From assembly GCA_045648885.1 (NCBI GenBank), contig JAZROV010000003.1, positions 3,179-67,178 on the forward strand: 64,000 nucleotides of DNA, read 5' to 3'. The stretch is from Candidatus Enterousia sp. Its GTDB lineage: Bacteria; Pseudomonadota; Alphaproteobacteria; Rs-D84. Below, in pieces: positions 19,004 to 19,295 of the stretch. Position 1 is the stretch's first letter. Each line of letters starts with the position of its first letter. Both the position numbers and the translations under genes were made by a program. Below the pieces are notes generated by a model that was not told where the DNA came from, searched no databases, and was given only the letters and a program-made list of their open reading frames with translations.

Positions 19004-19013
19004 TAAAAATTAA

Positions 19014-19040
19014 ATCCGATTTTATCGGGTTTTATTTTTA
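19014..19040 (+). terminator. Intrinsic terminator after tRNA-Glu
   Basis: ATCCGAT-TTT-ATCGGGT followed by TTTATTTTT. Confidence 0.6.
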
Positions 19041-19162
19041 TCTGGTGTTCTTGGGGATCGAACCCATGGGTTCGTGTACGAAGTTATTAAAAACAAGCGA
19101 TATATCGCGCAGTTTTTGATTTACGAGTCGAAAGGGGCCCATCACGGCGCATTTATGCGCCG

Positions 19163-19193
19163 GATGGGAATTACATTCCCATTGGGACTGCCA
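19163..19193 (+). repeat. Degenerate second copy of the tRNA-Glu 3-prime end (T-arm plus acceptor plus CCA)
   Basis: 19175..19193 (ATTCCCATTGGGACTGCCA) is identical to tRNA positions 18985..19003. ATGGG precedes it in both copies, but here the T-loop reads AATTACATT instead of TTCGATT. Confidence 0.85.
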
Positions 19194-19195
19194 CA

Positions 19196-19295
19196 ATGAG
19201 TAGCAGAGCGATTTTATCGCGATGCGTTACGAATGTCGCGCAGGCACAAAGTGCCGAGCGAAATGTTTCAAACGCCACGAAAGTGGCCTTTTTTG
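19196..19295 (+). ncRNA. Candidate structured RNA (three GC-rich hairpins, the last an intrinsic terminator)
   Basis: Hairpins GCGAT-TTT-ATCGC, GGCAC-AAA-GTGCC and GCCAC-GAAA-GTGGC followed by CTTTTTT. GC-rich in an AT-rich background. No family recognised. Confidence 0.3.

Follow-up and report, generated by a model that had tools for sequence, protein, structure and literature searches.

A folded 190-nucleotide unit without genes, possibly a non-autonomous cassette, between tRNA-Glu and a copy of its 3′ end in Candidatus Enterousia

The locus and the parts of the unit

Candidatus Enterousia is an uncultured alphaproteobacterium of rumen and gut, here with a genome of ~0.9 Mb (genome sizes of 0.75–1.0 Mb have been reported for Enterousia, and both it and the order Rs-D84 have genomes of less than 1 Mb and an apparent dependence on partner organisms; PMC12306168). 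In the 64-kb stretch of its DNA analysed here, referred to throughout as the window, a tRNA-Glu(CUC) gene is followed directly by a unit of 190 nucleotides (nt) that ends in an exact copy of the last 19 nt of that gene, and it is the nature of this unit that is considered below (coordinates are in Table 1). The tRNA gene, which is identical in two uncultured rumen alphaproteobacterial genomes (L001 and L002), remains intact beside the insert as judged by ARAGORN and Rfam. Direct repeats of a tRNA 3′ segment flank the element, as they do a tRNA island, and the 171-nt interior contains no open reading frame (ORF).

Could the repeat be fortuitous? The 19-mer, ATTCCCATTGGGACTGCCA, occurs only twice in the 64 kb even with up to 3 mismatches allowed, against an expectation of 0.04, and none of 100 shuffles gave two copies. 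ATGGG precedes both copies, and after the second ATGGG comes AATTAC where the tRNA has TTCG. The exact recurrence, the shared ATGGG and the altered second T-loop were features of the original prediction and all are borne out, as are the 16-bp palindrome (19059–19074) holding CATGGGTTCG, the palindrome GCGATATATCGC and the long hairpin at 19138–19168. An assembly artefact is excluded because the same unit is present in ten independent assemblies and in contigs from several runs.

Read outward from the tRNA, the unit begins with what is here termed module X, at the start of which are an A/T-rich spacer, a terminator-like hairpin whose stem (19012–19032) covaries in alignment A1, and a T-run. This hairpin would serve as the replacement terminator of tRNA-Glu. 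A promoter within module X was considered and rejected because the spacing differs among species, and no promoter-like site was found upstream of the folded module. Next is the 'anti-core', in which the tRNA-Glu 3′ end recurs in inverted, degenerate and partial form (inverted repeat I3, 17 nt and 94% complementary); a single long imperfect palindrome extends from −28 to +65 relative to the CCA. When sequences were compared by eye, the anti-core was seen in most species to agree with the host tRNA in its A/G T-stem variant. A T-box-like or primer-binding-site reading of the anti-core was set aside, the complementarity being, by eye, poor. The right arm of the 16-bp palindrome, CATGGGTTCG (19065–19074), is a direct copy of the 5′ strand of the T-stem and the first four bases of the T-loop. 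Module Y_A then follows; within it the invariant block GAAAGGGGCC comes after helix 3, GGGCCCATC at 19135–19143 is similar to the 5′ end of the tRNA, and the 3′ end is an invariant TGGGAAT-TAC that leads into the second copy of the repeat.

Empty and occupied sites in related species

The window was compared with 90 related loci (~1.6 Mb); 80 Enterousia loci, at 85–97% identity, were recovered with GyrA (24848–27631, minus strand) as query. In ~50 GyrA loci tRNA-Glu is convergent with a gyrA–merR pair, and in 14 of 50 tRNA-Glu loci a second copy of the tRNA's own end lies 95–230 nt downstream (L065 is a fifteenth, and in L066 the second copy is 3.4 kb away). What recurs is the last 18–19 nt of the tRNA-Glu of the species concerned, the distal copy bearing the host variants (T-stem CCCAT or CCCGT; acceptor strand ACT, AGT or GGT). 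Family A, to which the unit of the window belongs, was sought by pattern scans and with covariance model R1. It was found, at 122–144 bits with the covariance model, in ten species or contigs (the window, L020, L008, L077, L086, L087, L088, L090, L091 and L065), with every match beside tRNA-Glu; neither pattern scans nor model gave Y_A away from that position. The search for further copies proposed with the original prediction gave none elsewhere in the 64-kb window; the ten species all have it at tRNA-Glu. In nine of the ten family-A species copy 2 is that of the host tRNA variant, staying exact while Y diverges to ~70% identity. Families A, B and D have module X (the first ~65–70 nt) and the boundary ATTCCC in common and differ in Y; family C has its own conserved ~70 nt and no conserved left end.

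The comparison of the locus in relatives that had been suggested at the outset provides empty and occupied sites with the same flank. In L002, L024 and L017 the tRNA is joined straight to the distal flank AATTTCGTTATTGCGCGC; ahead of that flank L020 has a 190-nt family-A unit and L014 a 164-nt unit of family D (X, Y_D and core), the breakpoint being exactly at CCA. Similarly, L060 differs from the empty L050 and L073 by having two tandem family-B units, unlike each other, and L035 from the empty L039 by one family-C unit. Sites with and without a unit thus both exist, and they differ precisely at the repeat, as at tRNA islands.

Not all members are as tidy. The length of the repeat ranges from 18 to ~100 nt across the families, L090 is without the anti-core, module X is repeated after copy 2 in L087 and L065, and copy 2 is followed, in most carriers, by a terminator-like hairpin. 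Degenerate extra copies of the tRNA end are also found (GGATGCCA in L001 and L002, and one with two mismatches in L049). The array at 1–480 of L065 consists of tRNA-Glu, X, Y_A, a variant core (GGGGGGT for GGGAGT), X and a second Y_A, the latter broken by a Y_D-type module and ending after GAAAGGGGC, so that the second unit is partial. In L087 (JAZRSI010000056.1) the tRNA-Glu gene (3054–3128, minus strand) has the T-loop TTCCATT and the acceptor 3′ strand TGGTACT, with the distal copy still canonical, ATTCCCGTTGGGACTGCCA; these substitutions could be an assembly error or a degenerating gene copy.

The insert is distributed patchily and without regard to GyrA similarity. It is missing from L002/L024, which at 97% GyrA identity is the closest relative; in L020 (GyrA 92%) it is 95.8% identical and in L008 (GyrA 93%) ~80%. 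In the Logan contigs of 8 runs, those of runs X25 and X26 have the tRNA and insert with 2 differences in 264 nt and both flanks unlike those of the window, and contigs from other runs diverge exactly at copy 2. In L086 the stretch from the tRNA through the insert to the first gene beyond it is 90% identical over 1,059 nt, but the surroundings on both sides are different.

A conserved fold

The segment 19041–19200 folds better than its shuffles (z-score −4.25). Alignment of ten family-A units with RNAalifold yields five helices, with 96.8% of cells paired in the named structure versus 89.7% in shuffles, and double-change cells number 24, as opposed to 7.9 for shuffles (of 500, none was as high); when the partners are slid by 1–3 columns there are at most 4. 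The covariation support comes from helices 3 and 4. Three neighbouring pairs of helix 3 swap among G-C, A-U and U-A and none is broken, the interior of helix 4 is exchanged wholesale between species with pairing kept, and helix 2 is 94% paired across the 10 sequences. G·U cells exceed A·C cells by 26:2 (7:2 minus the weakest helix), which favours the + strand as the one that folds. Family B has, at a fixed position, a covarying hairpin of unrelated sequence, which is the same design as in family A. Compensatory changes such as characterize structured non-coding RNAs are thus present together with a fold kept on variable sequence, as is the case for attC sites.

Is the insert then a form of tRNA? 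No Rfam family matches 19004–19300, either at the gathering score or at E up to 10, and ARAGORN gives no second tRNA or transfer-messenger RNA (tmRNA) in 19004–19193. The T-like hairpin GGGAAT-TAC-ATTCCC has a loop of 3–4 nt, and GGGCCC, the would-be 5′ acceptor strand, is constant despite the change of ACT to AGT in the acceptor of L090 and L065. A tRNA pseudogene or tRNA-like RNA (tmRNA, t-element or YrlA-type) was accordingly rejected, there being no model match and acceptor pairing not being maintained, and a tmRNA or two-piece tmRNA additionally has against it the wrong acceptor end, the want of a canonical T-loop and of a coding piece. The tRNA-like look of the insert, which figured in the original prediction, did not survive: on these sequence grounds the resemblance is superficial. 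We take Y to be a conserved cis-acting part of the cassette; most likely it would be a structural element of a recombination site, with the + strand as the one read; alternatively, it would be a small RNA as sole cargo.

A cargo-bearing counterpart at tRNA-Gln

A similar arrangement, with cargo, is present at tRNA-Gln in the same window. After this tRNA come, in order, a terminator, part of its own 3′ end in inverted orientation, a single ORF, and, ~1 kb downstream, the T-loop half GGTTCGA, a Y-type module that has blocks GAAAACAAG and GCGCAGTTTGA in common with Y, and an 11-nt copy of the 3′ part of the tRNA. From this match the layout of tRNA, terminator plus anti-core, cargo, then T-loop half with Y and tRNA-end copy is not specific to tRNA-Glu. 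The 16-bp palindrome at tRNA-Glu arises where, cargo being absent, the anti-core abuts the T-loop half. The original prediction proposed a tRNA 3′ half split after TTCG of its T-loop; families A, B and D bear this out, as does the tRNA-Gln locus. Also beside tRNA-Gln, at about 5815–5870, is an inverted repeat, AGTTCGAAAGT / ACTTTCGAACT, that is like S (a module described below), and beyond the tRNA-Gln segment, to ~14000, are low-GC accessory genes including one for a PcfJ-like protein (8263–9993).

The variable island beyond the insert

The insert lies at the tRNA-proximal end of a hypervariable interval. Among species the distance from tRNA to merR is from ~20–60 nt to 7.9 kb (5.46 kb in the window), and in several there is just a shared terminator between the two. 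The six ORFs of the island in the window are almost never present in other species. Among their products are a GNAT acetyltransferase and a phage-lysozyme-domain protein, after which comes a small lipoprotein-like product; Pfam and PHROGs place four of the island ORFs as of unknown function, and an exact-protein look-up with the first downstream ORF gave no record. At 20838–22425 the phage-lysozyme (GH24-type) domain is C-terminal in a protein of 404 amino acids (aa), and the ORF after it, of 113 aa, has a lipoprotein-like signal; judged by domain matches, the layout of the pair resembles that of a secreted cell-wall toxin with its immunity protein.

Directly after copy 2 is module Y_D, which lies outside the unit and is of the same module system. 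It is polymorphic: contigs of runs X2, X3, X25 and X26 connect 19192 to 19261, and in runs X1, X4 and X5 it occurs in other contexts at higher depth. Homologues are located between GGGTTC and ATTCCC in L014 and within the second Y_A of L065, and no clear target duplication was discerned for Y_D. Further non-coding modules, R and S, cut the island into single-gene segments. Three of the R copies terminate in GATGGCCCTGCCA, and S is the sequence that in L066 and L044 comes directly after the CCA of tRNA-Glu. Both are confined to the tRNA–merR interval in the window, and they are in the same interval in 10–13 other species. A homology of R to Y_D is no more than a lead, the alignment being unconvincing. 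Upstream of island genes (19318–19375, 20040–20105 and 22590–22655) there is an inverted TTCGAA-centred pair, GTTCGAAA and TTTACGAACTTTT separated by ~40 nt, that could be the operator of a shared regulator or a hairpin. On the other side of tRNA-Glu, at 14740–18920 on the minus strand, are ORFs of 1033 and 366 aa with no confident Pfam domain. Homologues of the 366-aa protein, 30–58% identical, vary in position relative to tRNA-Glu (in L091 downstream of the insert), and therefore the upstream side is also variable.

Table 1. Features of the 64-kb window at tRNA-Gln, tRNA-Glu and the adjacent island
Feature	Position	Strand	Basis or remark
tRNA-Gln counterpart, whole	5536–6688	+	
tRNA-Gln	5536–5609	+	
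Terminator after tRNA-Gln	~5618–5641		
Inverted partial copy of tRNA-Gln 3′ end	5650–5663		
Single cargo ORF	5992–6426	minus	144 aa
Y-type module	6568–6673		model R1, 21.8 bits, E ~0.002
T-loop half GGTTCGA	6592–6598		
11-nt copy of tRNA-Gln 3′ part	6678–6688		occurs twice, 0.02 expected
tRNA-Glu(CUC), target gene	18929–19003	+	ARAGORN; Rfam tRNA 63.7 bits
Repeat copy 1, last 19 nt of tRNA-Glu	18985–19003	+	
Whole unit, 190 nt	19004–19193	+	directly after tRNA-Glu
Start of module X	19004–19040	+	terminator scan; hairpin 19012–19032
Anti-core (T-arm and part of acceptor strand, inverted)	19041–19068	+	
Helix 2, perfect 16-bp palindrome	19059–19074	+	
Module Y_A, folded interior of ~100 nt	19075–19174	+	RNAalifold, 10 species
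Helix 3	19083–19094 paired with 19112–19124	+	
GCGATATATCGC, 12-bp palindrome at tip of helix 3	19097–19108		seen only in window and L020
Helix 4, long hairpin CCCATC..GATGGG	19138–19143 paired with 19163–19168		
Repeat copy 2, exact 19-nt copy	19175–19193	+	distal boundary of unit
Module Y_D, 68-nt insertion	19194–19260	+	
Variable island, six accessory ORFs	19261–24460		self and cross BLAST, Pfam, PHROGs
R modules	19908–19990, 20736–20830, 22443–22539, 23544–23632		non-coding, approximate limits
S modules	19991–20156, 22540–22706		non-coding
merR	24461–24826	minus	

A cassette without cargo?

The reading that we favour, with chances that we would put at about even, is that 19004–19193 is a cargo-less, non-autonomous cassette of a family that inserts at tRNA 3′ ends in Candidatus Enterousia. 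The repeats, the sites with and without units and the fold are observed; site-specific recombination, a helper recombinase acting in trans and the role of Y we infer. The order in such a cassette would be X (terminator and inverted tRNA-end copy), cargo in other members, GGGTTCG, Y (~100 nt) and a copy of the last 18–19 nt of the tRNA. A joined form, circular or other, in the order 'Y – tRNA 3′ end – X' would recombine with the tRNA gene, the exchange occurring within the 19-nt identity block, which starts at T-loop position 58. The 3′ end and terminator borne by the element would then complete the tRNA, and the original 3′ end would be displaced distally, like an attR. Displacement of the old 3′ end in favour of one supplied by the element is the standard outcome for tRNA-integrating islands. 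Later arrivals, whether at the tRNA or at the displaced copy, would give rise to tandem units and to the variable island. In a joined or tandem form the joint would read ...GGGAATTAC-ATTCCCATTGGGACTGCCA-TAAAAATTAAATCC..., and that of the empty site ...GGGTTCG-ATTCCCATTGGGACTGCCA-CAATGAG.... Since none is encoded in the unit, the recombinase would have to act in trans. Such a model would account for the exact repeat, the precise polymorphism, the left boundary that families share, the tandem units and the distal copy that tracks the host, this last because in the model the distal copy is host-derived and so follows the host tRNA. Island growth that proceeds next to a tRNA and leaves partial tRNA repeats is a published model (bioRxiv 10.1101/2020.12.28.424599), and elements flanked by attachment (att) sites and without an integrase, known as cis-mobilizable elements (CIMEs), have documented tandem accretion (PMC5704250).

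Several points weigh against such a cassette. Foremost, where is the recombinase? By regular expression only (three passes, the final pattern loosened) no ORF with a tyrosine-recombinase motif was found in the window or the 90 loci, Pfam and PHROGs indicate no recombinase among the island ORFs, and no phage, plasmid or viral contig with the insert or the Y motif was found by IMG/VR patterns or in INPHARED and PLSDB. A free circle of 190 bp is implausibly small. Neither an excision or circle joint nor a restored empty site was seen in the Logan contigs of the 8 runs, contigs being liable to drop rare variants. In family C, L087 and L065 the repeat runs 12–81 nt past the CCA into species-specific flank, for which homology-driven Campbell integration or a local duplication is a better fit than a fixed att core. 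Finally, the recombination model alone leaves the covarying fold unexplained; we know of no requirement of integrase arm sites for covarying helices.

Some credence, albeit low, may be given to a tRNA-anchored system of integron-like type. Cassettes, some having an ORF and some not, would be captured at tRNA 3′ ends (Glu and Gln), would be bounded by an attC-like Y fused to the tRNA-end copy, and would have the folded + strand as substrate for an unlinked recombinase, possibly of a new type, or else a host enzyme. In common with integron cassettes and attC sites are small cassettes, some without an ORF, arrayed beside a single fixed site, an end module of variable sequence and conserved fold, and, apparently, a single folded strand. 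The differences are that here neither IntI nor the R''/R' consensus (GTTRRRY) is present, the junction being ...GCCA at the tRNA end and the scans described above having given no recombinase nearby, that the anchor is a tRNA and not an attI, and that gene orientations are mixed. The attC likeness is a resemblance only.

Could the unit instead be a gene, inherited vertically, for a small RNA? It would have arisen by partial tandem duplication of the 3′ half of tRNA-Glu, with a structured insert in the T-loop, and would specify a + strand RNA of ~150 nt in which the tRNA 3′ end is reused for processing, CCA maintenance or stability; species without it would have lost it by recombination between the repeats. 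The covariation of helices 3 and 4, the large excess of G·U over A·C cells on the + strand, the retention of copy 2 as that of the tRNA despite Y being at ~70% identity, and the terminator-like hairpin after copy 2 in most carriers are all as would be anticipated. But there is no promoter-like site upstream and, between tRNA and module, a good terminator, Rfam and ARAGORN are without a match, the acceptor-like pairing ignores the tRNA variants, and a search for RNA runs gave contigs of genomic type only. Moreover, unrelated Y families are at the same position, even in tandem, GyrA is no guide to similarity, and one copy that is 99% identical is in unlike flanks. We regard such a gene as doubtful.

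To be viewed with much the same reserve is a nested insertion, in which Y, as a T-loop-seeking element, would have landed between G57 and A58 of a pre-existing copy of the tRNA-Glu 3′ end (CATGGGTTCG+ATTCCC...CCA) located after the terminator, without target duplication. That Y has T-loop halves on either side, both in families A, B and D and at the tRNA-Gln locus, and that the related 68-nt Y_D is polymorphic and at three site types, accord with it. The expected uninterrupted palindromic pseudo-copy is another matter: an exact pattern search of a species-representative collection gave 64 matches, none from Enterousia. Besides, the origin of the partial copy itself is left unexplained, and Y_A is never away from this position.

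A neutral scar, the two att arms of a larger tRNA-Glu island or prophage that lost its interior and is decaying, is somewhat less probable still. Integrase-less remnants flanked by att sites are well known (PMC5704250), and the degenerate extra copies in L001, L002 and L049 speak for it. Yet all ten species retain the X–Y junction, with compensatory changes and invariant blocks, copy 2 has stayed exact in nine of them despite ~30% divergence of Y, and for each of the at least 4 insert families a separate clean loss of the interior would have to be assumed. The insert being conserved and covarying, it is not a passively decaying scar. The att-type scar of the original prediction stands in part: empty and occupied sites, the break at CCA and tandem families are in its favour, and no integrase, phage or plasmid was found. 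Of the two forms then offered, 'non-autonomous element' fits better than 'decayed island'. A locus without size polymorphism, together with a duplicated segment that is a conserved, covarying RNA structure, had been put forward as what would speak against integration; the size polymorphism exists, and so does the conserved, covarying fold. Lastly, a miniature inverted-repeat transposable element with tRNA-end-like terminal inverted repeats and a 19-nt target-site duplication would fit the mutual inversion of anti-core (19041–19068) and copy 2 and the identity of the two repeats within each species, but is very improbable, as each genome has a single copy, at tRNA-Glu in every case, rather than dispersed copies, the repeat is from 18 to ~100 nt long, family C has no conserved left end and L090 has no anti-core.

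Comparison with known systems

How does the putative cassette compare with what is known to integrate at tRNA genes? Like islands and prophages that tyrosine recombinases integrate into tRNA genes, at the T-loop or the 3′ end, it lies between an intact tRNA and a repeat of the 3′ end, the identity block extends from T-loop to CCA, there are empty and occupied sites, and the insert supplies a new 3′ end and terminator. Unlike them, it has neither an integrase nor any other gene, is of 190 bp with a covarying interior, and in some relatives the repeat enters the flank; the integrase that in tRNA islands is found within the element beside the att site was not found here. The only viral match to the 19-mer was to L098, a high-GC element of another organism with its own integrase. 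Filamentous phages of the CTX type have a folded single-strand attP and integrate at dif in a XerCD-dependent manner. Here also two inverted target-like copies ~100 nt apart could pair as a duplex target; however, a tRNA end is not dif, the pairing of anti-core with copy 2 is imperfect (and absent in L090), and there are no phage genes.

CIMEs of the ICESt1 type (PMC5704250) are likewise att-flanked, without integration genes, and in tandem at the same tRNA site, and as in them attL and attR are kept and integrase and transfer genes are absent. They are, however, kilobase-sized decayed integrative and conjugative elements or integrative and mobilizable elements, with a helper integrative and conjugative element known (PMC5704250). 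The unit here is 10–100 times smaller, its structure is conserved across species and it has no known helper; no autonomous relative from which it could derive or by which it could be mobilized was found in the 90 loci, viral contigs, phages or plasmids. With the Tycheposons of Prochlorococcus (bioRxiv 10.1101/2020.12.28.424599) are shared a hypervariable island that starts at a tRNA, scattered partial copies of tRNAs, the newest material nearest the tRNA, and a content that is mostly cargo with no mobility genes. Tycheposons, however, carry recombinases and replication modules, of which none was seen here, and the boundaries in Enterousia are marked by conserved, folded, non-coding modules.

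Implications

The putative cassette would be tRNA-linked island formation in miniature, in a folded and gene-less form and in a reduced genome. How reduced genomes exchange genes is an open question, and in this one window there are two tRNA-linked variable islands, delimited by conserved folded modules and copies of tRNA ends, with no mobility genes seen. Should the modules serve as recombination sites in trans, they would constitute a very compact means of gene capture, and the covariance model together with the tRNA end would be a handle for finding islands in metagenomes. If, alternatively, they are small RNAs, they would make up a new family of RNAs associated with the 3′ ends of tRNAs. 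Either way, not every duplicated tRNA end is to be taken for a dead scar.

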